IMG/VR virus record: IMGVR_UViG_3300020050_010385
Location: 1 to 64,000 of that record
Source: a virus
Taxonomy: Duplodnaviria > Caudoviricetes
Length of the DNA: 64,000 nucleotides
Strand: one strand, 5' to 3'
This document shows positions 4,725 to 53,798 of this stretch, in pieces. The stretch's first letter is position 1, and the number at the start of each line of letters is the position of its first letter. The notes under the pieces are model-generated. The model ran no database searches, had not been told where the DNA came from, and was given only the letters and a program-made list of their open reading frames with translations. The position numbers and the translations under genes were made by a program.

Positions 4725-4923
4725 CCTTTAAAATGAGTTTGGTTCCCCTGCGCCACGTGCATTCAAAATTCGGGTACTCGTATCCAGTTTCTGTCTCAAC
4801 TCGATCACCCATATAACAAACCACCTCTTTTATTGGCGCTTTTGAAACATAGATAGCGTAAGCTGTAAATATGGCTAGCATCAACAAGAGTCCGATAATT
4901 AAAAAAGTCAATATCTCTTTCAT
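4690..4923 (-). CDS. Small membrane-anchored protein
   Basis: N-terminal hydrophobic helix; ATG follows GGAGAGGTGA RBS in shared linker. Confidence 0.55.
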   Translation of the reverse strand: MKEILTFLIIGLLLMLAIFTAYAIYVSKAPIKEVVCYMGDRVETETGYEYPNFECTWRRGTKLILKGGKPTNQREDN

Positions 4924-4955
4924 CTCTTCACCTCTCCTCGGTCGATTGCGGTTGT
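4920..4955. repeat. 36-nt linker identical to 52116-52151
   Basis: TCATCTCTTCACCTCTCCTCGGTCGATTGCGGTTGT at both loci. Confidence 0.9.
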
Positions 4956-5092
4956 TGGCGTGTATCTTTCTTCCATCCATAAGAAATCAATCGTCTAGAA
5001 ATAGCCGCTATACCATTCCAATGCGGATTACTTGAGATAGAACCCTTCAAATCTTTTTCCATTTCTTTTGCTAACTTACTTTCTTTGCTCAT
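4928..5092 (-). CDS. 54-aa cassette ORF MSKE...QPQSTEER (not in ORF track)
   Basis: Translated by hand; same termini as 52124-52294. Confidence 0.65.
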   Translation of the reverse strand: MSKESKLAKEMEKDLKGSISSNPHWNGIAAISRRLISYGWKKDTRQQPQSTEER

Positions 5093-5120
5093 CTCACCTG
5101 TCCTTTAGTTGTTGGAGTTG
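5085..5120. repeat. 36-nt linker, 35/36 identical to 52287-52322
   Basis: TTGCTCATCTCACC(T/C)GTCCTTTAGTTGTTGGAGTTG. Confidence 0.9.
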
Positions 5121-5354
5121 ATCGGTAATATCCTTAATGGCTTTTTCTACGTATAGATATTCTGGGAATTTCATGGAGTTTTTTACTGCTTCAAAGGCAC
5201 TTAACTTTGCCTCAATTGTCCGCTGAAGATGCCACAAAGCGATTTTTCGGTAAGGATCGTCGTTATAACTAGGCATACCAAAAATTGCCTTATCTCCTAC
5301 TTCACGAATCTCTTTGGCTGCCATTTCTATCTGATCTCTGAGTTCTTTATCCAT
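5094..5354 (-). CDS. Hypothetical protein MDKELR...QLQQLKD, paralog of 52296-52667
   Basis: Shared N-terminal, central (QRT.EA) and C-terminal blocks. Confidence 0.7.
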   Translation of the reverse strand: MDKELRDQIEMAAKEIREVGDKAIFGMPSYNDDPYRKIALWHLQRTIEAKLSAFEAVKNSMKFPEYLYVEKAIKDITDQLQQLKDR

Positions 5355-5508
5355 CTGATTTATCCTTGCTGGCGGGAGGCTCACCTGTCAATGTGCTGAT
5401 AATTCTTTTACCTTTACAAACAGGACATGGATTATTTGATTTTGTTGATACTTGGCTTGTGTGGTCAATTCCTGAGCCGTTACAAACTGGACACGTTTGG
5501 TATCCCAT
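5347..5508 (-). CDS. Small DnaJ-type Zn-finger protein (not in ORF track)
   Basis: CPVCNGSG...CPVCKGK. Confidence 0.55.
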   Translation of the reverse strand: MGYQTCPVCNGSGIDHTSQVSTKSNNPCPVCKGKRIISTLTGEPPASKDKSDG

Positions 5509-5540
5509 AACTATTCTCCCTTCTCCTTGCTGGCGGTTAG

Positions 5541-5855
5541 CTATGGTTGATTACCGGCTTCTTTATATGCCTGCGCTGATAGGTCTAAATCTTCTTGAGT
5601 TATTCCAAGTTCGTCCAGGCGTTTTTGCTTTTCATCTTCCATTGGGTTATCTTTATGTCCCAAGCATCCTTTTTCATCGTCCCAATTATCGCAATCGCCG
5701 ATCTTTAAATACTTCTGCCCGTTATAATCAAGCAACTTGAGGTATGCTTCCGCTATCTTCGGCGGTAATTCATTGCCTTCGTCATCAGTAAAACCTCTAA
5801 AGGCTTTATTCCTTATCGCGCCCTTAATATCCATTCTCATATGATACCGCATCAC
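5541..5855 (-). CDS. Hypothetical phage protein
   Basis: ORF with CDNWD...GC.GH motif. Confidence 0.55.
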   Translation of the reverse strand: MMRYHMRMDIKGAIRNKAFRGFTDDEGNELPPKIAEAYLKLLDYNGQKYLKIGDCDNWDDEKGCLGHKDNPMEDEKQKRLDELGITQEDLDLSAQAYKEAGNQP

Positions 5856-5889
5856 TCCCCCCGTTGTTATCGAGCGTTAAAATTGTTGC

Positions 5890-6160
5890 TCCCCCTAGTC
5901 AGATTCCCCGCTAGTTTATCGGTCGGAGCCAACCGTACCATTGTCTCACCAGAGTGCCTATCGTCAGAATCGAACTGACCTCCCGTCACACCCGTCCTCG
6001 GTAAGCGAGTGAGAGTCGAACTCACCCTATCTCTTGGGATTTCTCCCGTTAAAATCAGCTAGGCGGCTTTAGTAAGCAACGATTAAATTCCACCGCAATA
6101 CGAGCGACGTAACTTTTGGTTTCATTCGAATCGTCAGGGTACTACCCCACGCCTAGCTTA
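5890..6160 (-). ncRNA. Candidate structured RNA with two tRNA T-arm-like hairpins
   Basis: GTGAG-TTCGACT-CTCAC, GTCAG-TTCGATT-CTGAC, GGGA-GAAA-TCCC, and a 9-bp long-range stem in an ORF-free gap. Confidence 0.5.
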
Positions 6161-6288
6161 ATGTTTACTCACTTGGATTTCTTCTTACTGGCTTTCCTAG
6201 ATTTTGTTCTTTTGGGATAAGGAATTATCGAAACACAAGTATAAATCCAAGAATTTATAATCATATTATCCTTTCCACAACCAATGTA

Positions 6289-6480
6289 TCAAGGCGATGT
6301 CTTGGGCGGTAGCTCCTCCGCCCTCTTGCGCTCTTTTGCCATGTATTCGTCCATGCTAATTACCTTAACCTTCTTGCTTAAATCTTGCATTGTCGTTCCT
6401 GCGTGTGCCACCTTTGCAATCATAATCATTACCAGAAAAATGAATAACGTGAAACAGACTATCCAGATTAGAAACCGCAC
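6289..6480 (-). CDS. Small signal-peptide/membrane protein
   Basis: Hydrophobic N-terminus ending AHA. Confidence 0.55.
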   Translation of the reverse strand: MRFLIWIVCFTLFIFLVMIMIAKVAHAGTTMQDLSKKVKVISMDEYMAKERKRAEELPPKTSP

Positions 6481-6644
6481 TGATACTTCCCACCTTTTCT
6501 TTTACCCCTCATTTCACTGAAGTAACATTTTCTAGAACAATACTTCTGATCTTTGTTGTCTCCGATCAGGGTAATAATTATTTTGCACTTTGGTTTTTTG
6601 CACTTGACTTTTCCGTGATGGATCTTTGGTCTTCCTGCTCCCAT
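6468..6644 (-). CDS. Small Zn-finger protein (not in ORF track), homolog of 53637-53798
   Basis: RPKI.HG.VKC...C....GDNKDQKYC..C...GKRKGGKYQ. Confidence 0.65.
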   Translation of the reverse strand: MGAGRPKIHHGKVKCKKPKCKIIITLIGDNKDQKYCSRKCYFSEMRGKRKGGKYQCGF

Positions 6645-6662
6645 TATTTTTCTCCTTATTGT

Positions 6663-6956
6663 TTAAAGTATGTCGCCTTCTTGGTCTCTTTCTTCTTTCC
6701 AATTAGGCCACATCTTAGACTGTTGTTTTACTAATAATCTTTCTTTATCGCGGTCTTTATCACTTACCCGCTTTGCTATTCTACTTTGCTCTCTGGCAAA
6801 AAGTTGTCTTTGAATAGGCTTTTCTAAAGTATCCTTAACAGACCATCCGGCATTAAGGCGCATATAAATAGTTTTATTTTTTAACCCAGTTTTCCTAGCC
6901 CATTCTGACACAGACCAGGTTTCTCCGTTGTGCGTTAAACTTCTTTCAACCGTCAT
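6663..6956 (-). CDS. HTH DNA-binding protein of the type found on HNH endonucleases
   Basis: NGET.SVSEWA..TG....TI..RL..GWS. Confidence 0.65.
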   Translation of the reverse strand: MTVERSLTHNGETWSVSEWARKTGLKNKTIYMRLNAGWSVKDTLEKPIQRQLFAREQSRIAKRVSDKDRDKERLLVKQQSKMWPNWKEERDQEGDIL

Positions 6957-9151
6957 GCGACCCTCCTTTTAATAACTAATTTTTGTCTTCTTGGATCGCC
7001 TAAACCAGTTTTAGCTCTTTTTAAAATAACTTTGTGGTTGTTTCTATTCAATTCTTCTTCAGTCTCATAAAGTCTTGCTGTTGTAATGATGGACCTCATT
7101 TTGTCTGAAACACGGTAATAATGTTTTCGGCCTTCTTTCTGCCTATTGAGCATGTCAAGCATAACCATATCTTCAAGAAAGCAATGAACCGTATAAGCCG
7201 TGTACTTACTTCCTTCTTGAATCACGTGCTTAATAGGCTCGCGATCCGAATCTTCTTTATTTAGAAGCCACACTTTTCTCAGAATTTCTTCGTCTCGTTG
7301 GTTAATAGTATCAAGCGCTATTCTTCTAATTAACGGAAGATCCTCAAGCGTAGCTTCTTCACGCCCGTAAAGAAAAGCCCGATAGACAGCAATATTACTA
7401 ATCATTTTTGCAAATCTTATTCCAGTTTCGCTGTAAGGAGCAGACTTGATATAGTCTCTACGAAACTTATCCCGACTAACAACTCCACGCATTGCAGCCA
7501 CGTAAAGGGATATGCCTTTTACAGCCTCCTGAAGTTCAGGACTTAGCTTTGGAAGTTTAATTCCTTCCTCAGCCTTCTTCATTATGTTTTTAACGCAGCT
7601 ATAAACCATCCGAGCGCAACGATCTTCGTCTGCCTTAAAGGTTTCTCTGGAAGACGATGAAATAGCTTTATCAATAGCGCCTTCGGCAAAGGCTAAATCA
7701 TTGCTGCGCCCAATGTTAAGCTTAGCAAACCGCTCACCTAAAGCTTGATTTGTTACAGCCTCATTGTAAATATCGTCTGTAACTGCGGCCAATAGCCCAA
7801 ATCTAAGTTTTGTGTAATTACGAGTTACGCCATTTCCAAAGCTTTTAGAGGTATATCCATCATACCCATCTCTAAGCTGTGCATTGATTTCCATCTTTTC
7901 TGACTCTGGCATAGAAGTAACAGTTGAAAAATCTTTAATAATGAGAGACATTCTATTGCCGTCCAGCTTAGCAAAAACCGACGGATCGCCTCTTTTTGTT
8001 TCCATTCCAGAAACTAAAGCATGTGTAGTTACGGAGCTAAGAGAATACCCTATTTCTTCGTAAGGCTGACAAAGATATTTAAGGCCATTAATGACTTGAG
8101 TTTTTCCAGAAGAGGGCGGTGCAACTAAGAACATCCAGACCGGATCCGTATCAAACATATTGGAAATCATGATTATTATTGCAAGCTCAATGCTCATGTG
8201 GTTTGGCTCATGAAGTAGCTCGTCATAAGACCTAAGTACGTCTTGAATAGTTATGGAAGGGTCAACCTCGGGCGCCTTATTCTCTTCTAGCATTGCTTCA
8301 ACTTCCTGGGTAATAGAAGTCCTTGGCTTTGGCTTAAGCAACGCGCTAAGTAACCTAAAGCAGCGTTTTGGAGTATTTTTTAAAACGCCATATCTTATTA
8401 TAAAATCTCTTGAGTCAAATCCGTTAGGTTTTCCGGCTGGCCAATGGCAAAACTGTAATTGCTTTGCCGTTTTACTAAGCCTATCCAATACAATCATTTC
8501 TCCTTTTAAGCCTGCTTCGTCATGGTCATATAATACGGAAACGACTTTGCCCTTAAAAAACTCGGCCCACTCGGGTTTGAAAGTGCCTGCACCCGGAGAG
8601 CAAACCGCCCTACCCATTTTTTTTGCAGCATCAAGAAGCCACTGTACTGCAATGGTATCCCACTCACCCTCGCAAATATATACCGACTGAGGGTTGACTT
8701 TGACGAGCTCAGAAAGGCCAAACAAACCAGTCGATCTCCCAGCGGTAGATATAACCTTGCCTCCGATTCTGTATATTCTAAGATCAACCAGCTTTCTGTC
8801 AGCCCCGCGGACTGCAATAGTATAATGTCCAGCATATCCAAGTTCGACCCAATTAAAAGCGCATTTTGGCAATCCTCGATCTTCTGCAAGAGCTTCAATA
8901 TGCTCTGGGGTAATTTGTTGAATGTTTCGCTCATTGATTTTCTCCAGGAATTTTTGGGAATTTCCTGAGGAAGAACAAACTTTGCAATCCCACAAGAGTT
9001 TTTCCCAGTTAATGTAAAAGTGCTTCTCTTTCATGCAAAATGGACAATCACCAACTACCTGCGTGTCTGCCAATGATCTTAAATTAACTCCGTGCATCGT
9101 AAACATTTTAAGCTTCTTAAACCTGTCTTCTGTCAAATCTAGTTCACTCAT
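6953..9151 (-). CDS. Primase-helicase fusion (Zn finger + TOPRIM + AAA+)
   Basis: CPFC..H...CKVC; ICEGEWD, YDHDEAG; APPSSGKT Walker A, IIKD Walker B, ERF. Confidence 0.85.
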   Translation of the reverse strand: MSELDLTEDRFKKLKMFTMHGVNLRSLADTQVVGDCPFCMKEKHFYINWEKLLWDCKVCSSSGNSQKFLEKINERNIQQITPEHIEALAEDRGLPKCAFNWVELGYAGHYTIAVRGADRKLVDLRIYRIGGKVISTAGRSTGLFGLSELVKVNPQSVYICEGEWDTIAVQWLLDAAKKMGRAVCSPGAGTFKPEWAEFFKGKVVSVLYDHDEAGLKGEMIVLDRLSKTAKQLQFCHWPAGKPNGFDSRDFIIRYGVLKNTPKRCFRLLSALLKPKPRTSITQEVEAMLEENKAPEVDPSITIQDVLRSYDELLHEPNHMSIELAIIIMISNMFDTDPVWMFLVAPPSSGKTQVINGLKYLCQPYEEIGYSLSSVTTHALVSGMETKRGDPSVFAKLDGNRMSLIIKDFSTVTSMPESEKMEINAQLRDGYDGYTSKSFGNGVTRNYTKLRFGLLAAVTDDIYNEAVTNQALGERFAKLNIGRSNDLAFAEGAIDKAISSSSRETFKADEDRCARMVYSCVKNIMKKAEEGIKLPKLSPELQEAVKGISLYVAAMRGVVSRDKFRRDYIKSAPYSETGIRFAKMISNIAVYRAFLYGREEATLEDLPLIRRIALDTINQRDEEILRKVWLLNKEDSDREPIKHVIQEGSKYTAYTVHCFLEDMVMLDMLNRQKEGRKHYYRVSDKMRSIITTARLYETEEELNRNNHKVILKRAKTGLGDPRRQKLVIKRRVA

Positions 9152-11049
9152 TTTAATTCCTTTGCTTCGGCCCAAGTTGTAAAAGTTATTTTGCACCCAA
9201 CAGGAATGTCCACCGGCAGCCCAACTTTTTTGCTGTCTCTTTGCATTTCTTTTTGTACTGCTGATATAATTTCATTCCTGTATTTTTTGTCCGCATGTTC
9301 AGATACTTCTACAACAAGTTCATCGTGAATAGTTAAAACCATTTTAGCTTCCCACGATTTGGTAGCCCTTAACAAGGGGCCTATTCTACAAATGGCTCTT
9401 TTGATCATGTCGGCACACGGACCTTGAATATCGTAGTTTACAGCTTTATAAGCAAATCGTGGATCTAAATAGTATCTACGCCCAAAAACATTTTCTATCA
9501 TTCCCGCTTTTTCTGCCATTCTAGTTTTTCTTTCTACGTACTGACTTACACCAGGAAGTCTGCGATCAAATTCGTCTATAATATCTTGAGCTTCTTCGCG
9601 TGAGCATCCAAATAGCGCTGCTCCTGCTTTGGCTGTTCCCCCGTATTGTTTTAAAAACATTGTTGTTTTTCCTTTTTTACGGTGTATTGTTTTTCCAGGT
9701 TTCCAGTCTGGCAGATGCCCCCATACCTGGTTGCCTACAGCTTCATGAACATCTTTACCTTGTAATAGCGCTTCCATTAAGATTTTATCTCTGGCTTGAA
9801 ACGCAAATAGCCATACTTCCATTTGGCTATAGTCTAAAAGATACCAAACATGGCCTGGTCTAGGACCCATAGCTTCGCGCGGCTTAAGCTCAATATCAGC
9901 TTTCTTTTTTACACTATCTGGGGAAGCTACTTGCTGAAGATTGGGGTCCGCGCATGACAGCCTGCCAGTAACTGTAGCTTGACGAAAATTTGGGTGTAAT
10001 AACCAACACTCCTCGTCTTTGGCCATAAATCTCTCATAAGAATTTATAAACTTTTGAACCATAGACTCTGAAGCCTTGTACTCCAAAACCGCTTTAGCTA
10101 ATGGATCTTTTTCCGATAAACGTAGAAGCTCGTCATTGTCAATGCTTGGAGCGCCTGAGTCCGTCCTATTGTATACTCTGTTGCCGCGCTTCTTAACAAA
10201 CAACTCTACCATTTGCTTTGGGGAATTAACATTAAGATCTTTTGCGCCAAGCTTCTCCATTTTCTCTTTCCATTTAGCTGAATACGCGCCATAAAACTTT
10301 CTAAGGCTTAATAAATTTTCTGGAAAACAATTGACTCCATTAGCCTCCATTCTATAAAGCTCTTTCATTACCGCTATTTCACCTTCATAAACAGGCTTCA
10401 AAGATGGAGTTTTTTCTAATTCTTCAGATAACCCCGCAAATAATGGCATTGTCATTTCAAGATCTTCAAGCGCATACTCCATTAAAACATTTTTATCCGC
10501 CAACCAATAATCTGATCTCCAATGTTCTTTTGTGCCGTGGGTTTCTTCGTTAGCAATATTCCATTTTAGTTTCTTAGCTTGAAGCCGCGCTTTTTTTGTG
10601 CTATCTTCAAGAGCTTTCTGTTTAGTATTATCCATTTCTAACCACTGTAAAGATAAGTTTTTAAGACCGTAAGAAAACAAAGACCCACCCGTTAAAACAT
10701 GGGCCAAGAATTGTGTATCATGTACTTTTGTCCAATCAAATTTTATTCCAGAAAGTCGCGTCATCCTAATATCAAAAGACAAATTATGGCCAACCTTTAT
10801 AATTGCTGGGTCGCCAAGAATTTCTGACATTGCCTTTAGATCCCTGGAAACAATATTAACTTTACGAGTTGTGGGGTTTACTTCCCAACGAATAAAGGCA
10901 GAATTACCGTGTAGGTCTTTAAAGGCAAATGCAAAAGGTCTAGCGGGACACATAGCGTATTTGGTATAAATTGCACTTTTCCAAGGGTTTAACCCTGTGG
11001 TTTCGGTATCGTATGCTATAATTGGGCCTTTTAAAGACGATAATGACAT
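9148..11049 (-). CDS. DNA polymerase family A (3'-5' exo + pol)
   Basis: DTETTG, HNLSFD, TGRLS..PNLQQ, DYSQ.E, IHDEL. Confidence 0.95.
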   Translation of the reverse strand: MSLSSLKGPIIAYDTETTGLNPWKSAIYTKYAMCPARPFAFAFKDLHGNSAFIRWEVNPTTRKVNIVSRDLKAMSEILGDPAIIKVGHNLSFDIRMTRLSGIKFDWTKVHDTQFLAHVLTGGSLFSYGLKNLSLQWLEMDNTKQKALEDSTKKARLQAKKLKWNIANEETHGTKEHWRSDYWLADKNVLMEYALEDLEMTMPLFAGLSEELEKTPSLKPVYEGEIAVMKELYRMEANGVNCFPENLLSLRKFYGAYSAKWKEKMEKLGAKDLNVNSPKQMVELFVKKRGNRVYNRTDSGAPSIDNDELLRLSEKDPLAKAVLEYKASESMVQKFINSYERFMAKDEECWLLHPNFRQATVTGRLSCADPNLQQVASPDSVKKKADIELKPREAMGPRPGHVWYLLDYSQMEVWLFAFQARDKILMEALLQGKDVHEAVGNQVWGHLPDWKPGKTIHRKKGKTTMFLKQYGGTAKAGAALFGCSREEAQDIIDEFDRRLPGVSQYVERKTRMAEKAGMIENVFGRRYYLDPRFAYKAVNYDIQGPCADMIKRAICRIGPLLRATKSWEAKMVLTIHDELVVEVSEHADKKYRNEIISAVQKEMQRDSKKVGLPVDIPVGCKITFTTWAEAKELK

Positions 11050-11112
11050 TGATTTTTCCTTTGGGATTTTAGAATGCGCGTTGATGTGCAGTCGCGCCCC
11101 TGCCTGTGCTTT

Positions 11113-12021: not shown

Positions 12022-12870
12022 TTACTTGCGTTTAATAACAAGTTTTTTTGGTTGAGCAACCGCCTCTTCACGAGCGATTTGCAGTTTATTATTAAAAGCG
12101 GCAACAAAGTTCCTATATGCTTCACGAGGATTATTCCCCATTGGTATTCGGTCAAGAGGTGTACCATCCGTATCAAGAAAATGTCCCTCTACCCGATTAC
12201 CTGCATCAACTTCGTCTGAGCCGCCTATGATTAAGTATCGTCTCTTCCCATCGTACTCGTAGTTTGCCCAAATGTCTACCAAGCCTTCAAGAATATCTTT
12301 GGCTTGCCCTGCCATTGAAGCCCCTACCTTATTAAAAGTGTCTCCTTTTCTTGTTTTAAACTCCTCGTCCTTGCTATGGCTTATGAATATAATTCCTTTT
12401 CCAGAGTGAAGCAGCTCAGTTACCCATGCCTGAAACTCAGCCCGCACCGCTTTCCAGCCTTTACCATAACCTTCATCTGAAGGGTGGTCAATAACCATCT
12501 TTTTGCAGATATACTCCATGCAAAACTCATAAGCATAATCTGCAGTATCAATAGAGGCAGTTTTAAAGCGATCGTCTTTAATAAATAATCTTGTGTACTC
12601 GCGCAGCTCCTTCCAATTGCGACAAGGTACCTGATACATTTCCTGAGCTTTTCCACCCGGCTCACACATCATTCCTAACATCCCCTCAAACTGAGCCGTA
12701 AAAGAAGTTTTACCTATTTTCTTTTTACCGTACATCAAAATCGAATAGTCTTGAACCTCATCCGATCTCTCAGACTTATGCTTTGGCAAGCTAAGCTTAC
12801 CAATTGGCTCTTCAGCTTTTTCAATTCTTTTACTGCTTTTTTTATTGCCTTTTAGTATTTTAATAGCCAT
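12022..12870 (-). CDS. AAA_24/Sak4-like ATPase
   Basis: YGKKKIGKTS, SIDT, GYGKGW, IFISH. Confidence 0.85.
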   Translation of the reverse strand: MAIKILKGNKKSSKRIEKAEEPIGKLSLPKHKSERSDEVQDYSILMYGKKKIGKTSFTAQFEGMLGMMCEPGGKAQEMYQVPCRNWKELREYTRLFIKDDRFKTASIDTADYAYEFCMEYICKKMVIDHPSDEGYGKGWKAVRAEFQAWVTELLHSGKGIIFISHSKDEEFKTRKGDTFNKVGASMAGQAKDILEGLVDIWANYEYDGKRRYLIIGGSDEVDAGNRVEGHFLDTDGTPLDRIPMGNNPREAYRNFVAAFNNKLQIAREEAVAQPKKLVIKRK

Positions 12871-15288: not shown

Positions 15289-15294
15289 CTTATT

Positions 15295-20861: not shown

Positions 20862-21287
20862 TCATATTTTTAACCTCCTATAAGAATCAAAGAGCTTCTC
20901 TATATATAGCGTCATCTCATCCCTATTCTGGCAAAAAACAATCTCAATGCCGTAGATCGCCCGAATTGTGTAAAGCTGCTTTACAATGCTTACTCCTGTT
21001 CTTTGGGATCTTGAATAGCCTTTAAGCACTTTGCTTAAGCTGCCTTCAACTATAATAATAATCTTAACTTTATCTGCTTCCGCCTTTCTTAACATATTCC
21101 GAAACCGCTCATATCCCTTTGAAAGGCTCCCAAACAAATCCGCAATCGATTTCCTCTCAAATATCACCGGCACCATGCTCTCATCGTCAAGCTCACACCC
21201 ATAATCCCCAAACGGCAAACACGCCTTGGCCGAAGGCCAGGCAAACTCAAGGGGCCTTTGTTCGCGCGTATCAATTAGAATTTTCAT
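20862..21287 (-). CDS. ERCC4-domain nuclease
   Basis: IDTREQ.P, GDY, ERKS..DL. Confidence 0.85.
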   Translation of the reverse strand: MKILIDTREQRPLEFAWPSAKACLPFGDYGCELDDESMVPVIFERKSIADLFGSLSKGYERFRNMLRKAEADKVKIIIIVEGSLSKVLKGYSRSQRTGVSIVKQLYTIRAIYGIEIVFCQNRDEMTLYIEKLFDSYRRLKI

Positions 21288-33584: not shown

Positions 33585-34949
33585 ATGTCTACACTTCCGT
33601 TGTCTAATGTAATTTCCGTGAACGTCTTCTTCCCACCTACGGGAGTCGGGGCGTTTAATGTAAACAACTTAGCTTTGTTTACTTCTGATGCTTTTTTAAG
33701 TAATCCTGATAACGACGCCTATCGGGTTTACACTTCCGCTCAGCAGGTAGGGGTTGATTTCGGAACCACGACTGAAACCTACGAACAAGCCGTTGCAGTT
33801 TTCTCCCAGCAACCGAATATCTTAGCTGGTGGTGGTACGTTGATCATCTTCCCAAGCTTTGTTAATAGCGCAATCAACGCAGTTAGCATTGCAGCAGGTG
33901 GTACGGGATACGTGGTCGGGGATGTTCTTAACGTGGTTCAGGGGGTTGCTTACGGTGGTGTGGTTCGTGTATCGAGCGTTTATGCAGGGGCGGTCACGGG
34001 AGTTACCGTGGTTTCGGGCGGTGCAGGGTATTCTGCAGCAGTCGGTTTAACTACCACTGGCGGTACGGGTAGTGGATGCACCATTACTATCTCGACAGTT
34101 ACCACTGAAACTTTAACGCAAGCTGTCGCTCGTGTGTCAGAAATGGTCTTCTTCTGCGGTATCATTTCCACGTCGTATGGTGCTAATTCAACCTGGGCAG
34201 CGTTGGCAACGGCGATTCAATCTTACGGTAATAAGCTTTTGTTCTTACCTTCGAACGCTTTGACCGATATCCCTGGAGTTTTCACTACGATTAAAAATGC
34301 AACGAATTACTACACACGTTGTTTGTATTACTCTGGTACGGCTTTGCAAGGTCGTTTGTTCGCAGCTTCTTATGCGGCTAGACTCTTGTCCGTGGACTTT
34401 ACGGGTTCCTTCACAGCCATCACAATGAACCTGAAACAACTTTCGGGTGTCACAGCTGACGCAGGGATCAATACAACTGTTGCAGCGTTGTGCGTGACGG
34501 CAGGGGTTGACGTGTACGCTTCTTACGCCAACGTTCCAGCAACCATCTCAAACGGAGCAAACAAATACGCTGATCAAGTTTTCAACCTTATCTGGTTCGT
34601 TCTCGCTCTCCAGGTAGCTGGGTATAACGCTTTAGCTACTTTGTCAACTAAGATTCCTCAGACAGATAGCGGTATGAATCTTTACAAAGGTGCTTTAAAA
34701 CAAATCTGTGAGCAAGCAGTAGCCAACGGTTACTTGGCTCCCGGGACTTGGACAGCGGTTGATACCTTCGGGAATCAGGCTGACTTCCTTAATAACATCC
34801 TTTCCAAAGGTTACTATATCTACTCTGCTCCGATCAATCTACAAACCGTTGCAGCAAGAGCAGCACGTCAAGCACCACTCGTTCAGATTGCAGTTAAAGA
34901 AGCCGGAGCAATCCAGTCCAGCGTCATCAACGTATATGTTAATCCGTAA
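33585..34949 (+). CDS. Contractile tail sheath (DUF3383)
   Basis: K.L.GV, KIPQTD.G, AV.NG..APG.W, GYYIY, R.AR, K.AGAI. Confidence 0.9.
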   Translation: MSTLPLSNVISVNVFFPPTGVGAFNVNNLALFTSDAFLSNPDNDAYRVYTSAQQVGVDFGTTTETYEQAVAVFSQQPNILAGGGTLIIFPSFVNSAINAVSIAAGGTGYVVGDVLNVVQGVAYGGVVRVSSVYAGAVTGVTVVSGGAGYSAAVGLTTTGGTGSGCTITISTVTTETLTQAVARVSEMVFFCGIISTSYGANSTWAALATAIQSYGNKLLFLPSNALTDIPGVFTTIKNATNYYTRCLYYSGTALQGRLFAASYAARLLSVDFTGSFTAITMNLKQLSGVTADAGINTTVAALCVTAGVDVYASYANVPATISNGANKYADQVFNLIWFVLALQVAGYNALATLSTKIPQTDSGMNLYKGALKQICEQAVANGYLAPGTWTAVDTFGNQADFLNNILSKGYYIYSAPINLQTVAARAARQAPLVQIAVKEAGAIQSSVINVYVNP

Positions 34950-46510: not shown

Positions 46511-46541
46511 AAACTTATAAAAATATAAAGGAGATTATGCA

Positions 46542-47798
46542 ATGAAAAAATTAATATTACTACTACTACTAATCTTTGGGTTCTGCAGTAACGCTTTTGC
46601 TACAAAATTCATGTACAATTTCGGGTCAAATACTAATAATTCAGCTGACGTATCCTACTGGTATATCGACGGTATCGGAACATCTTCGGCTTTCGAAGCC
46701 CAAAGATTTATGCCTGTAGCTTTACCTGTAAAACTTAGTAACCTATCGGTAGTAACAACAATTGCTCCCACAGCAGGACAGGGAGTTATTTATACAGTAT
46801 TCGTTAATGGTGTTGCAACAGCTTTAACGTGTACTATTCCTGATCTGCTTCTAGTATGTACTGATACTACGCATACCCTCTATCTGAATAAAAATGACAA
46901 TGTTTCTATCTACGTTACAAAATCAGGGACTCCAACCTATGGTCCATTTGTAGGATATGTACAGGCTGAAATTGAAAATAATAACTATGACTCATTGGTG
47001 GGAAGTGGTGCAAATAATACGTCAGTGAGTAATGCGGTAACTAATTACCTTGGGTTATTTACTGAGACCCCCTCAACAAGTGAAGCAGCCCACCAATTCG
47101 TCATTCCCTTAGATGGATATCTGTCTAAATTATACGTTCAGCTCTCAGGAATTCCTGGAGCAGGAAAAAGCTATACTATTACTGTCAGAAAAAATGGAGC
47201 CGATACTGCTTTAACTATCCCAGTTGCAGATAGTGCAACAACTAATGAAGATTTATTTAATAGAATAGCAGTATCTGCTGGTGATCTTATTGCGGTATCA
47301 GTGGTACCTTCAGGAACCCCCACAGCTAGAATTGTATCATTTTCTGCTGTCTATACTTCTTCAATCTCGGGGTATTTTATTAAAGGTATGAACACGGGTT
47401 CTACCTCACTCTCCCCATCTTCCACTTACTATACTGCCTTTGTAGGTACCATAGCCCCCACTACGTCAGGTCTAACGCAGAATGAACTTATCCCACCGAA
47501 TCTTTACTTAAAAAGAATGTACGCCTATTTAGCCACTGCTCCTGACACGGGAGTAGGGACTCAAAGTTACGCAATTACCCTCAGAGATTCAACAGCTTCC
47601 AGTAACACCACAGCAACGTGTACTATATCCGATATCGCTCAATCTTGTTTATTCAAATACCCAGTACCTTTACCTGCTACCGATATGCGAGCATCTTATA
47701 GTGCAGTTCCTTCTGGTACACCGGCAGCGTCAACCTTAACTGTAGGTGGAGCATTTACTCTAATCCCTCCTCAAGCATCTAATATTAAAGGTTACTAA
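46542..47798 (+). CDS. Signal-peptide protein with three internal beta-sandwich repeats
   Basis: MKKLILLLLLIFGFCSNAFA; repeated L..L.V....P..G....T...NG..TALT...SGTP. Confidence 0.7.
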   Translation: MKKLILLLLLIFGFCSNAFATKFMYNFGSNTNNSADVSYWYIDGIGTSSAFEAQRFMPVALPVKLSNLSVVTTIAPTAGQGVIYTVFVNGVATALTCTIPDLLLVCTDTTHTLYLNKNDNVSIYVTKSGTPTYGPFVGYVQAEIENNNYDSLVGSGANNTSVSNAVTNYLGLFTETPSTSEAAHQFVIPLDGYLSKLYVQLSGIPGAGKSYTITVRKNGADTALTIPVADSATTNEDLFNRIAVSAGDLIAVSVVPSGTPTARIVSFSAVYTSSISGYFIKGMNTGSTSLSPSSTYYTAFVGTIAPTTSGLTQNELIPPNLYLKRMYAYLATAPDTGVGTQSYAITLRDSTASSNTTATCTISDIAQSCLFKYPVPLPATDMRASYSAVPSGTPAASTLTVGGAFTLIPPQASNIKGY

Positions 47799-47972
47799 TA
47801 TGATAGAAAACGTAGTCTTGACTATTCCTCCAGAAAAATACAAGTTCATGGTAAAGACCCTAGAATCCTTCAAGTCAGGAATACGTTTATTAAACCTAAA
47901 TGCACTTTATAAACAAAGCCTAATAAAAGAACTCCACACCATAGAGAGCATCATTAAAACTAATAGGAGTCA

Positions 47973-48317
47973 GTGATGGAATTCACTCAAGAATTTAAAG
48001 ATGAAATGCTAAAGGAGATTAAAAATTTCAGAGTCCTACTCGTAGGTGACGGCACACTAGAAAATACTGGATTGATCGGTGTTGTAAAAGATCACGACAA
48101 TTACGTCCGTGACGGTAAGAAGTGGCGGTGGGCGATTATTGGATTGATCGGATCCTTTGCCACGTACGTTGTCGGAGGGTTCATACTATACGGCAAAATG
48201 GAAGAACGAATTGAGTGGCACGACAAATATATTAAATACTTTATTGACGAGAGAATGAATGCAAAAACACCAGTGCAACCCAATTACTATGACCCCCGAA
48301 CAACTAAAAAACATTAA
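47973..48317 (+). CDS. Single-TM protein (holin-like)
   Basis: L.G.G....GL; one TM helix. Confidence 0.5.
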   Translation: MMEFTQEFKDEMLKEIKNFRVLLVGDGTLENTGLIGVVKDHDNYVRDGKKWRWAIIGLIGSFATYVVGGFILYGKMEERIEWHDKYIKYFIDERMNAKTPVQPNYYDPRTTKKH

Positions 48318-48452
48318 GGACTGTGTGAGGAAGATTGTGATACTGGAGAAAGCTATACAATTAAATAAACTCGAATTAGCCATTACTCTCATTGATCAGC
48401 TTAGGTTTGATTTAGGTCTACTAAATGAAGAAAGAAAACAAAGGAGACACGA

Positions 48453-48665
48453 ATGAACTTGATTATCAAACTACTCAATCTTTTAAACGGCTACAAGACT
48501 TACCTAACAGCAACAGCTGCTGTTCTAACGGCTATCGTTGCCTACCTTAATCACGCTATCACAATCGAGGAGTTGCTCACAGCAGTCTTTACCGCTATCC
48601 AAAGTATGAACATTCGACACGCCATTACTACAACCGTATCCAAAGCAACTGGAGAAAAACTATGA
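48453..48665 (+). CDS. Holin-like protein
   Basis: L.GYKTY, two hydrophobic segments, R.AI. Confidence 0.6.
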   Translation: MNLIIKLLNLLNGYKTYLTATAAVLTAIVAYLNHAITIEELLTAVFTAIQSMNIRHAITTTVSKATGEKL

Positions 48666-48835
48666 GGGATTTCATTCTAGTGATTTTAATGATGGGTATT
48701 ATCGGCTGCACTTTTTCCAGACAAATGGAAGTCACGGCAACGGGTACGAATGTTGAGAGCATTTACGGTAGCGGTAGCTTGAACACTGGGTATAAATCTA
48801 ACACAACCACGGGGTTCTTAAATGGAAGAAATTAA
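48662..48835 (+). CDS. Small lipoprotein, spanin-like (not in ORF track)
   Basis: MRDFILVILMMGIIG-C lipobox. Confidence 0.55.
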   Translation: MRDFILVILMMGIIGCTFSRQMEVTATGTNVESIYGSGSLNTGYKSNTTTGFLNGRN

Positions 48836-49382
48836 AGAGGGAAAAGTGTATACCGATCCTAGGAGATTCACCGAAGCTGATTTACCTTTAATTGTTTTAG
48901 CTGATGACCTAAGGGGGTTCATTGGTTACGCCATCAAGTCCCATACCAAAGGAAATTACAACCACGCCTTCATTATGCATCGTCCAGGTTTCTGTGTTTC
49001 CCAGGACTTCGGGGGGTTCAAAGAACACCCGATCGATGTCTATCTTACGGAAGGGATGATGCTGAAATTCTGGAAAGTAAGAAACTTGACTCTGGTAGAA
49101 AAAAGTATTATCCTCTTGAACATTAAAAAGAGACTGGGAAGAAAGCGGTGGCAAAATAGCTATGACTTCCTAGGGGTTCTTGTTGGCCAGGTAACCCGAC
49201 TCCGTTGGATCCAGAATCCTTTTCAAATGTTTTGCAGTGAGCAGGTAAGATGGGATTTCCTTAAACCCTTAGACCGAGCAATTAAGTTCATACGTCAGCA
49301 ACCAAGTCCAGCTGACCTGGATGCTAGTTTCAAGCCAAACCCCAACGTGTTTATTCCCGCAGGGTATTGGTGGAGTGACTAA
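48822..49382 (+). CDS. Permuted papain-like (YiiX/NlpC-P60) amidase
   Basis: YNHA upstream of YD..G and FCSE. Confidence 0.75.
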   Translation: MEEIKEGKVYTDPRRFTEADLPLIVLADDLRGFIGYAIKSHTKGNYNHAFIMHRPGFCVSQDFGGFKEHPIDVYLTEGMMLKFWKVRNLTLVEKSIILLNIKKRLGRKRWQNSYDFLGVLVGQVTRLRWIQNPFQMFCSEQVRWDFLKPLDRAIKFIRQQPSPADLDASFKPNPNVFIPAGYWWSD

Positions 49383-49468
49383 GATACCCCTGCCGTAATT
49401 GGTAGGGCGGTTGGTGAAAAAACGGAAGAATAGCCTTCGACCTTGAGCAAGTTGGAGGCTATTTCTTT

Positions 49469-49891
49469 TTACTCAGTAATTTTATCTAAAGCCCGGAGTA
49501 GTTTATGCCTTAAAACAATCGGTAGATCTTTATCCAGTAGACATCTCAATTCCAGTTCATTAAACGAGAGTGTAAAACGTTTTTTACGCTCTGATACAAA
49601 TCCCGTTCTATGCAAGGTTGGTAATTTAAAACGAGGGATTCCATCACTGTCGTCGTAACCATAAGTTTTACCAATAACCGCATATAGCTTAGGAAACATA
49701 CTAACCTGTAATAATTGTCCACAACACTTTACCCAACCAGTGGTATCGATACTATTGGGGAACCTCTGTAATGCACCAACTGGCCAAAGCTTACTTTGTG
49801 CCCCTATGGTATCGTTATATCTTATGTACCAATCCCATTTATTTTCCATCTTGAACCTCCTCTTCGTTTGACCACTCATTATATCTTTCAA
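49469..49891 (-). CDS. Stand-alone tail-collar-domain protein
   Basis: PVG......GW..C.GQ.L....P.LYAVIG.TYG.....F.LP. Confidence 0.7.
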   Translation of the reverse strand: MKDIMSGQTKRRFKMENKWDWYIRYNDTIGAQSKLWPVGALQRFPNSIDTTGWVKCCGQLLQVSMFPKLYAVIGKTYGYDDSDGIPRFKLPTLHRTGFVSERKKRFTLSFNELELRCLLDKDLPIVLRHKLLRALDKITE

Positions 49892-50750
49892 TAAATATTT
49901 GTTCTCTCTTTACAGCCGCAGATCCTTCTTGGATTTTCTTAATTAAAAAAGCAATCAAGCAATAGATCCCGTAGATTAACCAGAATAATAACCCTAAAGC
50001 TATGCCTATAAGAATTGCTAAATTCACAGTTAGTGTTGGATTTGACTCAGGCACTTGTTAGTTCCTTTCCGAATGACTCATGTTCATGTATTAGTGTTCC
50101 TCTCTTAGTCCTATAGAATGTATCATGACAAGTAAAAAGGGTACCGTCTTGATTAAACTTGTGATAACAAAAACTCCAGTAGACCATTCTATTCTACCTT
50201 CTCTGAGTAATACATTCCCATACAAAAGGTCGTAACAATAGCTATAAATACGGTAGCTATGTAAGGAACGAAATACCAGGGAGTTTCTTCCAATGTAAGC
50301 TTACTGCCGATGTAAAAACCTACCCACAGTAAAATTAAACTTGCTGAGTATGAAATAATAGCTTTGGCACTGTTACTCATTTTCCACTCTCTTTCTCTAA
50401 CTTCTCAGCTAGGTGTTTTTTAAGACGCTCTATCTCCTTTAAAATTTTTTCTTTACTCCAGTGGTTTTGTATAAATCCATCACAGGTTCTTCCACATTCA
50501 TCCCAACAATAAGTACACTCTCGTAGGCTCATTTATTTACCTCTCCTTGGTAACCCCATCATTTTAATTTTCATCTCTGAACAAGTTTCATTACTTTCTT
50601 TGAATAGTTTTTTATCCACCAAGAACGATTTCATAATCTCATTCTCAATATCTATTATCGTATTTTCAATGGCCTTTTTAATTCTTTTCTCAATAGCTTT
50701 TCTTTGGCGACTATTTACTTTTACAAACTCAAAAACTATGGTGGTATTAT

Positions 50751-51230
50751 TCACTTTTTATCCTCTGTATTTACAAGACGTTGTTGGATTAAATAAATTA
50801 ACATTTTGGCTCTGGCGTCGGCTTCGGTAACTGCTTTCTCTCCGTGGTATAACTCAAATTGCTTATCGTAAGGCTTTGGTCGATATATTTGATAATCACA
50901 GTACCAAGCTTGCAATGGCTCAGGGGTTTTAAATTTACCACAGACAAGATGAGCTTCTTCTTTCCAAATTCCACCATTGGTAAACTGCTTATCTCCATTC
51001 TCAATATCAATCTTTGGCGGCAACAACTCCCCCAGCTCGGACGATAGGAAGGCGGAATATCTAAATGGTGAAGCCCAAGCCATAGCGTCTTCGCCAGAAA
51101 AAACATAAGCATCGTATCCTGTACCAGCCGCATTATCTGTTTCAGTCCAATAGAAAAAAGAACTTTGCTTAACCCCCAACTCCTTAAGCTTCTTACTCAA
51201 CTCCAAACTCGTAACATGATTCTCAATCAT
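50751..51230 (-). CDS. Conserved phage protein
   Basis: V.SLEL.KKLKELG..Q, AF..SELGE.LP, TEADA.AKMLI.L. Confidence 0.65.
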   Translation of the reverse strand: MIENHVTSLELSKKLKELGVKQSSFFYWTETDNAAGTGYDAYVFSGEDAMAWASPFRYSAFLSSELGELLPPKIDIENGDKQFTNGGIWKEEAHLVCGKFKTPEPLQAWYCDYQIYRPKPYDKQFELYHGEKAVTEADARAKMLIYLIQQRLVNTEDKK

Positions 51231-51892
51231 TGCTTTTCCTCCGTCTTGGCGAATAGGGCGTGGATGGCTTGCTCGACCATTAGAGCATTTTCGTAGGCTT
51301 TTGGTCCAGGTCCAAATAGGCAAACAATATCATTGTTTTCTGCGGATATACAGTAACCAACATATTTTTCTTTGTCTGGAGATAACTGGTTGCATTGTTC
51401 TACAAACTCATTCCACGGACGGTCAAGACCAAAGAGTTTCCAAGGCAGAGGGGATAATTTATTCATCTCTTCCACCGTCGGAACCCTCCGCTCGGGGATT
51501 GACATGGTTATATTTGTTTTTAACTGCTCATTTTTAATTGTGTGTTGAAGAATGTTGTTCTGCCCCTCTTTAAATCCGTTACTATAACCACGGCTGTAAT
51601 GGTATTCTTCCAGATTCTTCTCCGGCGCATACATCTCAGACATACACTTACCACACATCGGAACAGAGTTTAATCCATAAGTATCGGTTGGGGTCTTACA
51701 TTTTATACACTTCTTCTCTGACGTGTTCTCTACAAGATACTTGCGGGTGTTCCATTGGATTATTGTGGGAGCATTAAATCCGCAATCCTCGCATAAAACT
51801 GCCATTTCAATTGCTCTTCGCCACTTGGTTAATTTAATACCCATACAACCAGGACACGGCAATAACTCTTCACTCTTATTTGCGTCGCTCAT
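51227..51892 (-). CDS. Lar-like Zn-finger modular protein
   Basis: L.PCP.C...C..C....WNTR, then further modules. Confidence 0.6.
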   Translation of the reverse strand: MSDANKSEELLPCPGCMGIKLTKWRRAIEMAVLCEDCGFNAPTIIQWNTRKYLVENTSEKKCIKCKTPTDTYGLNSVPMCGKCMSEMYAPEKNLEEYHYSRGYSNGFKEGQNNILQHTIKNEQLKTNITMSIPERRVPTVEEMNKLSPLPWKLFGLDRPWNEFVEQCNQLSPDKEKYVGYCISAENNDIVCLFGPGPKAYENALMVEQAIHALFAKTEEKQ

Positions 51893-52119
51893 TTTGGCTC
51901 CTTAATAGCTTCATCGCCAACGTAAATGAAATAACCTTTACCTGTATCAATATAAATATCGTATACCCACGAAAAACGTTCACCAAAACCACTTTTATAA
52001 GCAACGCCTCTAACTTCTCCCTCTTGCCATACTTTTGGTGTCTTCCTGTAATTTAAAACAAGAACAGTGTCGCCATATTTAGCTTTCGGTTTACTTATGG
52101 TTATCTTTCCCACGCTCAT
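51889..52119 (-). CDS. Small SH3/KOW-like protein
   Basis: K.KYGD.V; starts in shared linker. Confidence 0.55.
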   Translation of the reverse strand: MSVGKITISKPKAKYGDTVLVLNYRKTPKVWQEGEVRGVAYKSGFGERFSWVYDIYIDTGKGYFIYVGDEAIKEPK

Positions 52120-52123
52120 CTCT

Positions 52124-52294
52124 TCACCTCTCCTCGGTCGATTGCGGTTGTGGGCTTTTCATATATTGTTGATAGTGATACCGACACATACAGGTGTTTC
52201 CGATTTTAATAACCGATGGATATTTACACATACGAGCATAAGCAGTACCCTCGTATCTAACATTGACTTGACATGGCTTAAGCTCCTTGCTCAT
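52124..52294 (-). CDS. 56-aa cassette ORF MSKE...QPQSTEER (not in ORF track)
   Basis: Translated by hand; Cys-rich middle unrelated to 4928-5092. Confidence 0.65.
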   Translation of the reverse strand: MSKELKPCQVNVRYEGTAYARMCKYPSVIKIGNTCMCRYHYQQYMKSPQPQSTEER

Positions 52295-52295
52295 C

Positions 52296-52667
52296 TCACC
52301 CGTCCTTTAGTTGTTGGAGTTGGTGCTTAATTTCAAATATTCTATCGTTCATGTCTTCGCACCATTTATTACTGACAATTTCATCAATCCTTGCCTCAAG
52401 TGTCCGCTGAATATGGAATTTACCGAGTTTTAAATAATTCTTCTTTAAACTAGGCTGCTGGTCTGCGGCTTCCCAAGTCAATGGGTCACATAAATGCTCA
52501 AACATATCAGCTGCCACCTTTTCTATCTGCTCTCTGAGTTCTTTATCCATAAAATATTCTCCTGCGGGTTTTCCATCTATATAGGCTATCGTTGGAGGAG
52601 TTTTTGCTACTGAACCGTCCATGAAACTATTTAAAGCATCTATTGATTTCTTAAGTTCGTTATCCAT
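52296..52667 (-). CDS. Hypothetical protein, paralog of 5094-5354 with extra N-terminal module
   Basis: MDKELREQIE...HIQRTLEA...QLQQLKD. Confidence 0.7.
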   Translation of the reverse strand: MDNELKKSIDALNSFMDGSVAKTPPTIAYIDGKPAGEYFMDKELREQIEKVAADMFEHLCDPLTWEAADQQPSLKKNYLKLGKFHIQRTLEARIDEIVSNKWCEDMNDRIFEIKHQLQQLKDG

Positions 52668-52684
52668 CTGTTTTATCCCCCTTG

Positions 52685-53080
52685 CTATCTACTCTCATCA
52701 ATATTGATAAATTTCCCAAAGGCCGGATCGTAGTTATAAACCTTGCCGTTCTTCTCGTATCTAATCCAAGCGTGCCCGATATTCTGCTTTGTACCAATCA
52801 TCATCGACGGGTTCTTGATGTCTTTGTCTTTCCTGATTTGGTTGAGTGTGTCCAGAGCCCTTACCCAACACTCTTTGCTTAACTCCAGAAGAGGCTCGTA
52901 GGGAGCGTCGAAAACGGCTTTTTCGGATTTAATTTCTAAGATATAGTTTTTGATCTCCCTTACTTGAAAGAAAGTCAAATAATACGGGATCAAGAATGAT
53001 ACGGCAAAAGCGATAAACCCAAAGTTATACCAAAAATCGTTATTATTTTTTTTCATACAATTCCCCTTTAAGGATGCCAC
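52685..53080 (-). CDS. Membrane-anchored transglutaminase-like protein
   Basis: TM helix; C...A, GHAW, YDP triad pattern. Confidence 0.55.
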   Translation of the reverse strand: MASLKGNCMKKNNNDFWYNFGFIAFAVSFLIPYYLTFFQVREIKNYILEIKSEKAVFDAPYEPLLELSKECWVRALDTLNQIRKDKDIKNPSMMIGTKQNIGHAWIRYEKNGKVYNYDPAFGKFINIDESR

Positions 53081-53640
53081 AAAGTTACAGTGTTTGAACC
53101 AACATGAACCATTGCCGCGACCGCCGAGCTTGACTTTAGCTTCTCTTGCGCTTCTTTGATCATCTGTAAGGCGTAGTCAAATTTCTTTTCTTTAACTGCA
53201 ATTCTTACATTGTTTCTTTCTTTTCTGGAAAAGAACTCAGTATCCTTCCCATCACGTGTCACCTGCTCGGAAAACAATGCCATGTCAAGGTGGAATAGAT
53301 TAGGTTCTGCAATATTTTTTGAGAGTTCGTACAAAAGCCATTCGTAATAAACTGCACTGGATGAACTTCCCTTTAAAACTTCATTTGCTTTTGCGAGATA
53401 CTCATCGAGCTTCTCTTTACTCAAACCCTTCTGGCTTAACTCTTTTGCTTCCCGAATCTCTTCAGCAATCTCTTGCATTTCTTTATCGTTCTTGAGTTTG
53501 ATAATACTTGTTACCTCAGATAGAGTTGAAAAATTACTTCCAGCACAAGCTTCCTTAGCGTGTAGACAAAATAGAACCATTAATACCAGTGCTATAAAGA
53601 TATATACCACCATCCCTATCATGGCTAATTTTACTTTCAT
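53068..53640 (-). CDS. Signal-peptide/membrane protein
   Basis: Hydrophobic N-terminus ending ACA. Confidence 0.55.
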   Translation of the reverse strand: MKVKLAMIGMVVYIFIALVLMVLFCLHAKEACAGSNFSTLSEVTSIIKLKNDKEMQEIAEEIREAKELSQKGLSKEKLDEYLAKANEVLKGSSSSAVYYEWLLYELSKNIAEPNLFHLDMALFSEQVTRDGKDTEFFSRKERNNVRIAVKEKKFDYALQMIKEAQEKLKSSSAVAAMVHVGSNTVTLWHP

Positions 53641-53798
53641 TGATACTTCCCTCCTTTTCTTTTACCTTTCATTGCCTTAAACTTACAAGCTTGACCACAA
53701 TATTTTTGGTCTTTATTATCCCCATATAGTTTAATCATCTTCTTGCATAATATACTCTCACACTTTACTTCTCCGTGGTATATTTTAGGTCTTGGCAT
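53637..53798 (-). CDS. Small Zn-finger protein (not in ORF track), homolog of 6468-6644
   Basis: RPKIYHGEVKC...GDNKDQKYC...GKRKGGKYQ. Confidence 0.65.
   Translation of the reverse strand: MPRPKIYHGEVKCESILCKKMIKLYGDNKDQKYCGQACKFKAMKGKRKGGKYQ

Follow-up and report, generated by a model that had tools for sequence, protein, structure and literature searches.

Conserved linkers at gene junctions and probably exchangeable cassettes in the early accessory regions of two phage genome equivalents

How do two phages come to share a series of short, almost identical sequences in the same order, when most of the genes between those sequences have nothing in common? The question is raised by IMG/VR record IMGVR_UViG_3300020050_010385, assigned to the Caudoviricetes. 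The first 64 kb of this 95,131-bp record form the window, that is, the whole stretch of DNA analysed here. An earlier note, made from the letters of the window alone, described two arrays of accessory genes that share five blocks. The arrays do not lie in one phage. The record is a composite that concatenates two phage genome equivalents of ~47 kb by way of a 209-bp repeat, and each array occupies the position of the other in its own early region, at an offset of ~47.2 kb; the two are here called A and B. Comparison with related contigs suggests that homologous recombination between co-infecting phages, at conserved linkers located at the gene junctions, probably swaps cassettes in these early accessory regions.

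The shared blocks and the genes between them

Direct comparison reproduced each of the five blocks of the earlier note: block 1 (4920-4955 and 52116-52151) is identical at 36/36 positions, block 2 (5085-5120 and 52287-52322) at 35/36, block 3 (5207-5231 and 52391-52415) at 23/25, block 4 (5324-5354 and 52520-52550) at 30/31 and block 5 (6481-6506 and 53641-53666) at 25/26. They are collinear and in the same orientation, as had been claimed, with offsets of 47,160-47,202. In a self-BLAST of the window, blocks 1-5 have E-values of 5e-12, 9e-10, 5e-7, 9e-5 and 0.05, respectively, and a sixth pair, 5326-5365 and 52639-52678, was found at 85% identity. The array genes are on the minus strand. The two 36-mers had been described as a stop, a ribosome-binding site and a start; blocks 1 and 2, and block 5 as well, do combine the end of an open reading frame (ORF) with a ribosome-binding site and the start codon that follows. 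In the wider set of linkers, denoted by letters, a, d, e, g, h and z lie at gene junctions and span the stop, Shine-Dalgarno sequence and start, and f lies inside a gene. The blocks and the genes that they touch are as follows.

4920-4959, minus: linker h (block 1), copy in A; the upstream A ORF reads into it and gains the tail QPQSTEER
52113-52155, minus: linker h (block 1), copy in B
5085-5120, minus: linker g (block 2), copy in A; ends the three-helix gene with its last eight codons (QLQQLKDR) and stop; after 1 nt, the following ORF begins with its ATG
52287-52322, minus: linker g (block 2), copy in B
5205-5234, minus: block f (block 3), copy in A; codes for W-H-L-Q-R-T-I-E-A-K, the central motif; the hybrid contig L017 crosses over here
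52386-52421, minus: block f (block 3), copy in B
5308-5366, minus: linker e (block 4), copy in A; Shine-Dalgarno sequence, ATG and the first ~10 codons (MDKELRDQIE)
52513-52563, minus: linker e (block 4), copy in B; internal and in frame
52639-52678, minus: another, diverged copy of linker e (85%), where the B gene is annotated to begin; a 39-residue insert lies between it and 52513-52563
6478-6513, minus: block 5 (z), copy in A; the C-terminal nine codons of the Zn-ribbon ORF (GKRKGGKYQ), which contain the Shine-Dalgarno sequence and start of the next ORF
53638-53673, minus: block 5 (z), copy in B
5094-5354, minus: three-helix gene, A form; 86 amino acids from the MDKELR start, carrying blocks e, f and g
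52296-52667, minus: three-helix gene, B form; 123 amino acids, made up of a 39-residue extension and the family core, which starts at an internal ATG at 52550
4928-5092, minus: cassette ORF between g and h in A; 54 amino acids, MSKE...QPQSTEER
52124-52294, minus: cassette ORF between g and h in B; 56 amino acids, with the first four and last eight residues of the A ORF and an unrelated middle

The DNA between the blocks had been called unrelated. This is so at the nucleotide level, where global alignment gave identities at the level of shuffled sequence in all four intervening stretches. It does not extend to two of the intervening or flanking genes, which are ordinary diverged orthologs: the Zn-ribbon gene (62-67% amino-acid identity) and the three-helix gene (about 40%). 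These are the only ortholog pairs in the array region, so the possibility, also raised in the earlier note, that the intervening segments simply align as diverged orthologs is borne out for them alone, and all other genes between or after the linkers are unrelated between A and B. The gene after the first linker does differ entirely (4690-4924 and 51889-52119 have no similarity), and the middles of the two ORFs that begin with MSKE and end with QPQSTEER cannot be aligned. The shared termini are not exchanged protein modules but ORF ends that are read out of the linkers. MSKE is encoded by the downstream edge of linker g, and QPQSTEER results from a reading frame that runs into linker h up to its TGA. 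In linker h itself, a conserved core of ~29 nt precedes a Shine-Dalgarno sequence that contains the TGA; after a spacer of 4 nt comes the ATG of the gene that follows. In other phages, L018 and L019, it is intergenic, with the upstream ORF stopping earlier; in A, B and a further contig, L024, it is read as QPQSTEER, in the last case at the end of a methyltransferase-like ORF.

Blocks 2-4 double as the three conserved motifs of a family of helical proteins of 70-125 amino acids: an N-terminal MDKELREQIE, a central H-[LI]-Q-R-T-L-E-A-[KR] and a C-terminal QLQQLKDG. A profile search with the 86/123-residue pair from A and B returned a small family (P0001-P0008), and the three motifs are invariant in an alignment of these eight members. 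The extra module of ~39 residues that had been noticed ahead of a second MDKELR start in B is indeed present and sits between the diverged and the in-frame copies of linker e. AlphaFold predicts a three-helix structure (pLDDT 76); the protein has no match in Pfam or PHROG, and no viral structure matched the model at E < 0.1 in a fold search. The same architecture is seen in a second family of small genes with a weak match to Lar_restr_allev (L010 647-910, L021 1410-1730, L024 1311-1562 and L025 69-404), in which the start, the middle and the end each carry a near-identical block of 23-41 nt and the DNA separating these three blocks has diverged.

Recurrence, a hybrid and the competing explanations

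Neither megablast of 1-22000 nor blastn of 4880-6320 matched any cultured or deposited phage genome, and peptide-pattern scans of IMG/VR based on the three-helix and Zn-ribbon alignments returned nothing either. Exact scans of IMG/VR did not find a 29-mer of linker h or a 35-mer of linker g, although records near the window may have been excluded, so that this is not evidence of absence; a 31-mer of g had no exact match in IMG/VR or the JGI metagenome contigs, under the same possible exclusion. Linker-bearing relatives were instead found by a protein route, in contigs from JGI, ENA (two assemblers) and Logan that represent many samples. The alternative set out in the earlier note, that the linkers exist only in these two copies, thereby fell: the sequences reappear, in unchanged order but separated by different genes, in contigs that were not derived from the sample of the record. 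In L018-L026, assembled from other samples and with other assemblers, linkers a-h keep their order and are 92-100% identical. The linkers upstream of those already listed are located in A as follows.

6261-6307, minus: linker a; recurrent mosaic boundary at 6307, with sigma-70-like hexamers; spans the end of the upstream ORF
6039-6167, minus: linkers b (6147-6167) and c (6039-6065), the arms of a conserved inverted repeat of ~20 bp around a variable loop of 60-120 nt
5849-5887, minus: linker d; junction preceding a 104-residue ORF in A, with the same sequence preceding an unrelated 73-residue ORF in other phages

The slots between the linkers are filled in many ways. Between g and h, A, B and the relatives carry ORFs of 54, 56, 62 or 147 amino acids, or a pair of 80 and 169; linker h has at least five unrelated genes on each side, and no fewer than five different genes follow linker g. 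In L025, the interval between a and b contains two genes, one of them Acb2/Tad1-like, and the three-helix gene takes its Shine-Dalgarno sequence directly from c. Linkers are also duplicated around inserts, as with g, which occurs twice in L024, and e, which occurs twice in B; the partial second g of L024 flanks an inserted ORF of 80 residues and shares only 21 nt.

Could such a pattern arise from illegitimate recombination followed by selection? According to this model, associated with Hendrix, random non-homologous joins survive where they fall at gene borders, and the conserved islands are what is left of a common backbone. The boundaries are indeed situated at gene ends or close to them, with some joins a few codons into ORFs (at 6307 and in the tails read from linkers), the 21 nt of the partial g in L024 are short, and most mosaic boundaries are reported to lack conserved sequences (PMC3029335). 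However, independent events would erode the islands unequally. Here, the linker flanks change sharply, yet the same cores of 29-36 nt are intact in 4-8 unrelated contexts on both sides, and islands are also found inside a gene, in frame. With the hybrid described below, which crosses over within shared sequence, this makes illegitimate joining an unlikely source of the pattern.

At first sight, the arrays also resemble a cassette array of the integron type, with small promoterless ORFs in one orientation between short conserved sites and with duplicated linkers around two of the inserts. A dedicated integron-like or site-specific system would, however, have to recognise linkers that are mutually dissimilar and form no intragenomic repeat family in self-BLAST of either the window or the record. 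Neither an integrase nor a serine recombinase is present among the annotated neighbours, and most linkers lack attC-like inverted repeats, so that a system of this type is very improbable. The earlier note had spoken of a recombination-based system that swaps whole genes and in-frame modules; the swapping has gained support from the linkers recurring with other genes and from the hybrid, but there is no sign of a dedicated system. A diversity-generating retroelement was rejected as well: the variable segments differ in length and cannot be aligned, and the self-BLAST of the record contains no template repeat. No reverse transcriptase is recorded among the annotated neighbours, of which not every ORF was scanned.

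A clear indication of exchange is the hybrid contig L017. Its 4,148 bp follow A from 6307 to 5207 at 99.6% and then B from 52415 to 49344 at 99.9%. The switch falls inside block 3, in a core of 11 nt at which A and B are identical, and the contig has three private substitutions just to the left of the junction. The encoded three-helix protein is thus a fusion of the N-terminal half of A with the C-terminal half of B, or segment 1 of A and segment 2 of B. Exact identity over only 11 nt is too short for the junction to be a k-mer assembly chimera. The match to A is lost or ends at exactly 6307, 18 nt before a stop, in five contigs. Wastewater contigs from four runs of four studies also stop at 6307, and one continues with unlike sequence. 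These Logan contigs are of low depth (2-8x) and fragmentary, with internal ends that cannot be placed cleanly on the linkers, and they are informative only in that their match stops or changes at 6307.

An assembly artefact as the source of the shared blocks or of the hybrid has to be considered, given that the record and a 129-kb contig related to it are both composite and that the first 124 nt of the record stem from another context. It is nevertheless barely credible that artefacts would place the same 25-47-nt blocks inside JGI, ENA (two assemblers) and Logan contigs in different contexts, and the short identity at the L017 junction speaks against it as well.

A further alternative is that the blocks have no special role in recombination and represent ordinary divergence under functional constraint, being the best-conserved parts of genes and initiation regions under purifying selection. 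Much in the locus fits with this: e, f and g coincide with the invariant motifs of the three-helix family, each junction block contains a Shine-Dalgarno sequence and an ATG, the Zn-ribbon and three-helix pairs align as diverged orthologs, the stem formed by b and c is conserved, and linker a has sigma-70 hexamers matching at 10/12 positions. The synonymous sites tell against it. At identical residues of the three-helix gene, codon identity is 74-91% in 15/15 pairs, even though amino-acid identity is 35-54%, compared to 35-52% in six other A/B ortholog pairs and 40% in the tail sheath, the protein of which is 93% identical. Since the sheath retains the same codon at only 40% of its conserved residues, synonymous sites between A and B are saturated. 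L028, a more distant member of the three-helix family, partly retains the motifs but has no nucleotide similarity. The excess of codon identity, together with L028, indicates that the identity of the blocks is explained neither by protein constraint nor by an absolute requirement for the nucleotides. Moreover, ~20 nt of linker h upstream of the Shine-Dalgarno sequence are identical even where they are non-coding, the linkers are flanked by unrelated genes and not by diverged ones, and L017 is a hybrid. Constraint by itself is therefore a doubtful explanation, given about the same small chance as illegitimate joining. Judging from these comparisons, the nucleotide identity of the blocks would instead mark phages that belong to a common pool, in which these segments are exchanged and thereby homogenised.

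The early accessory regions are fine-scale mosaics in which ordered, unique sequences of 25-47 nt stay near-identical and the genes or segments between them are unrelated. According to the proposed mechanism, the linkers would be the places at which homologous recombination between co-infecting phages crosses over, and cassettes would be exchanged position by position, with gene order and translational coupling kept. Junction linkers would bound the swapping of whole small genes, and in-frame motifs that of sub-gene segments. An ORF with no stop of its own ahead of a linker reads into it and shares the tail QPQSTEER, and an ORF that starts in a linker shares MSKE. Ordinary roles of the linkers, as initiation regions, as a promoter-like element (a) or as a hairpin (b and c), are also probable and may be the reason why they are conserved enough to serve as homology. 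We infer that the exchange would be catalysed by the phages' own annealing recombinases: a Sak4-like protein in A, an exonuclease and an SSB-like protein in B, and RecT and an exonuclease in a third variant. The candidates, all known by annotation, are as follows.

12022-12870, minus: Sak4-like single-strand annealing protein, phage A; candidate recombinase
55707-57631, minus: candidate recombination module of phage B, made up of a PD-(D/E)XK exonuclease (55707-56615) and an SSB-like protein (56618-57631)

RecT and exonuclease genes are annotated in the third variant. The minimum homology for Red-beta is ~30 bp, and phage annealing proteins recombine diverged sequences (PMC3945230; for Sak4, PMC5928155). 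The linker length of 25-47 nt matches this minimum.

Some observations weigh against exchange at the linkers. The case for recombination is built from short-read metagenome assemblies, several of them composite themselves; there is only one unambiguous hybrid, and crossovers in linkers are known from assemblies alone. Conserved function, whether of the Shine-Dalgarno sequences and starts, the e-f-g motifs, the b/c hairpin or the hexamers in a, could contribute to the conservation or even explain it. The family and its linkers are rare: among 1.84 billion proteins there are 11 representatives, and no others came from IMG/VR or from cultured phage genomes. A search with the Zn-ribbon family returned the A and B forms only and so gave no third context for block 5, which is found in an ortholog that is 62-67% identical and may simply be the best-conserved end of that gene. 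Finally, co-infection is assumed.

Two phages in one record and the surroundings of the linkers

The composite nature of the record emerged from its repeats. In a self-BLAST of the whole record, the virion modules at 22.8-44.5 kb and 69.4-91.2 kb match at 74-83% identity, and a shorter repeat marks the join.

47784-47992, plus: 209-bp repeat, also present at the record end (94923-95131); join between genome equivalent A/A' and phage B

The two copies match at 205/209 positions, with the last 121 bp identical; the repeat contains the end of a tail-fibre gene, an ORF of 58 amino acids and the next start. L014, an independent 129-kb JGI contig, runs through the early region of B (53038 to 47787) and, by way of the 209-bp repeat, directly into 95131 to 89435. 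Phage B (~47.1 kb) thus closes on itself, and the record represents the path A, repeat, B, repeat. Positions 1-47.9 kb comprise A-type early genes and a virion module of the myovirus type, with phage B from 47.9 kb on.

The structural module has a myovirus-type tail sheath, baseplate wedge, Terminase_3 and portal. The ORF at 67-996, however, encodes the N-terminal 309 amino acids of a second, different large terminase (phrog_38) from a podovirus context, cut at about 114-124, and the first 124 nt of the record match another phage context (L014 5635-5758), consisting of the 3' end of a gene and a GC-rich hairpin at ~82-112. The 129-kb contig has the same A-type early region (99.93% over 15.2 kb), followed by the full terminase of 497 amino acids, a portal of the T7 type (Head-tail_con) and a capsid gene that is different as well (L009). 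This contig is also composite, being a path through shared repeats. For the ORF of 141 amino acids at 20862-21287, sought as the place where the A early region meets the virion module, only a contig of 1.9 kb was found.

Distant homologs common to the early regions of A and B are few (PolA at 25-29%, dCMP deaminase at 37% and ThyA at 23-26%), and the primase and helicase arrangements differ. The phages involved thus carry different replication modules, in line with the earlier note, and the virion modules apparently differ, too. The tail sheath genes at 33585-34949 and 80274-81638 of the record encode proteins of 93% identity but share the same codon at only 40% of the conserved residues, so the two virion modules must have diverged long ago under strong purifying selection, and the 36/36 linkers stand out against this. 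There is also a practical warning here: repeats that seem intragenomic in such IMG/VR records can be homology between genomes.

Several other features were observed in the vicinity. The cassettes of phage A include a GroES-like co-chaperonin ORF (4383-4688, minus) and a 53-residue CXXCXGXG zinc-finger ORF of the Anti-TRAP/DnaJ type (5347-5508, minus), the latter call being below the Pfam cut-offs. In the relatives, the slots carry Lar-like restriction-alleviation, Acb2/Tad1-like and N6/N4 methyltransferase genes (L025 75-1636; L024 1690-2361; L028 1060-1770), which suggests that the linker region is an anti-defence or accessory island; L024 also has a TnpB-like gene. Phage B has a small homing-endonuclease-like ORF (NUMOD4/HNH_3 by Pfam, in the identical contig L015) at ~55376-55720 on the minus strand, between the exonuclease and a dUTPase-like gene, which is a possible additional driver of local gene conversion. 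Direct repeats at 2863-2896 and 2910-2945, with exact cores of 23 nt, lie inside a gene for an O-like replication initiator (2640-3281) and look like the iterons of an origin inside the initiator gene, as in lambda.

The arms b and c are invariant in four phage lineages and are followed by an A/U-rich run. The conserved stem of ~20 bp shows no covariation, and the inverted repeat may be a terminator or an RNA-processing hairpin. Sigma-70 hexamers at 10/12 occur in linker a only, with overall counts at the level of shuffled sequence, and RNA folding of 5856-6310 is not distinctive (z = -0.95). An apparently non-coding gap of 430 nt contains two T-arm-like hairpins with GTTCGA-type loops (5867-6085, minus). 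ARAGORN found no tRNA or tmRNA, and relaxed thresholds gave only a sub-threshold tRNA-like structure in this gap. Rfam had no match in the window at the gathering threshold and only chance-level matches in 5780-6360 at a permissive one.

Relation to known systems and what the locus means

The locus invites comparison with several known systems. The modular theory of phage evolution, as summarised in PMC3029335, proposes that boundary or linker sequences are sites of homologous recombination that reassort modules (Susskind & Botstein 1978; for HK620 and lambdoid phages, Clark et al. 2001). The linkers described here are alike in being short conserved sequences at the junctions of exchangeable genes in otherwise dissimilar phages. 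They differ in occurring at almost every junction of a stretch of ~1.5 kb and also inside one gene, and in being shared by phages with different replication modules and with podovirus- and myovirus-type virion modules, which are represented only by uncultured wastewater-type contigs.

The PeSLs of T4-type phages (PMC2839356, PMC4122927) are likewise short conserved regulatory sequences that flank small accessory ORFs in hyperplastic regions and mediate their shuffling, and linker a, which is promoter-like, together with the b/c stem-loop may resemble their unit of promoter and stem-loop. However, PeSLs constitute one motif family with many copies per genome and can recombine intramolecularly to form mini-circles, whereas the present linkers are single-copy, mutually different and in fixed order. 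Being unique and ordered, they point to exchange that is position-specific and takes place between genomes. Membership in the PeSLs was rejected, since self-BLAST of the window and whole record revealed no repeat family among the linkers.

Relaxed recombination by annealing recombinases such as the Rad52-like proteins and Sak4 (PMC3945230, PMC5928155, PMC2896510) also gives rise to mosaics flanked by short or diverged homology, and Sak4-like, RecT-like and exonuclease/SSB modules are present here as well. That work was experimental and concerned temperate coliphages and prophages; here, the enzymes are known by annotation, the mosaics are much finer and no lysogeny genes were found in the examined parts of these phages. 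For sub-gene exchange, the closest parallel is the gp38 adhesin of T-even phages (PMC3157838), a single gene in which conserved motifs separate interchangeable variable segments, much as e, f and g of the three-helix gene surround two variable segments. The two differ in that gp38 is a host-range determinant of known function, and in that the last motif of the three-helix protein doubles as the initiation region of the next gene. Taken together, the locus is an unusually clear natural example of the known linker model and not a new kind of system.

A bolder idea is that the linkers are more than relics or initiation regions and constitute a maintained, ordered set of unique 30-45-nt "addresses" shared across wastewater phages with different replication and virion (podovirus- and myovirus-type) modules. 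Annealing recombinases would then swap accessory and anti-defence cassettes slot by slot, and the set would act as a natural exchange standard selected for evolvability. This is conceivable, but we hold it as a tentative idea that is more likely wrong than right.

Two old views exist of how phage mosaicism arises: by homologous exchange at boundary sequences or by random illegitimate joins that are filtered by selection. The first view was weakened when conserved sequences were found to be missing at most boundaries (PMC3029335); here, they are present at nearly every junction. The linkers also recur across samples with numerous different cassettes, and a hybrid that crosses over inside one of them exists. 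Given long reads or a cultured host, the linker model could be tested directly at this locus.

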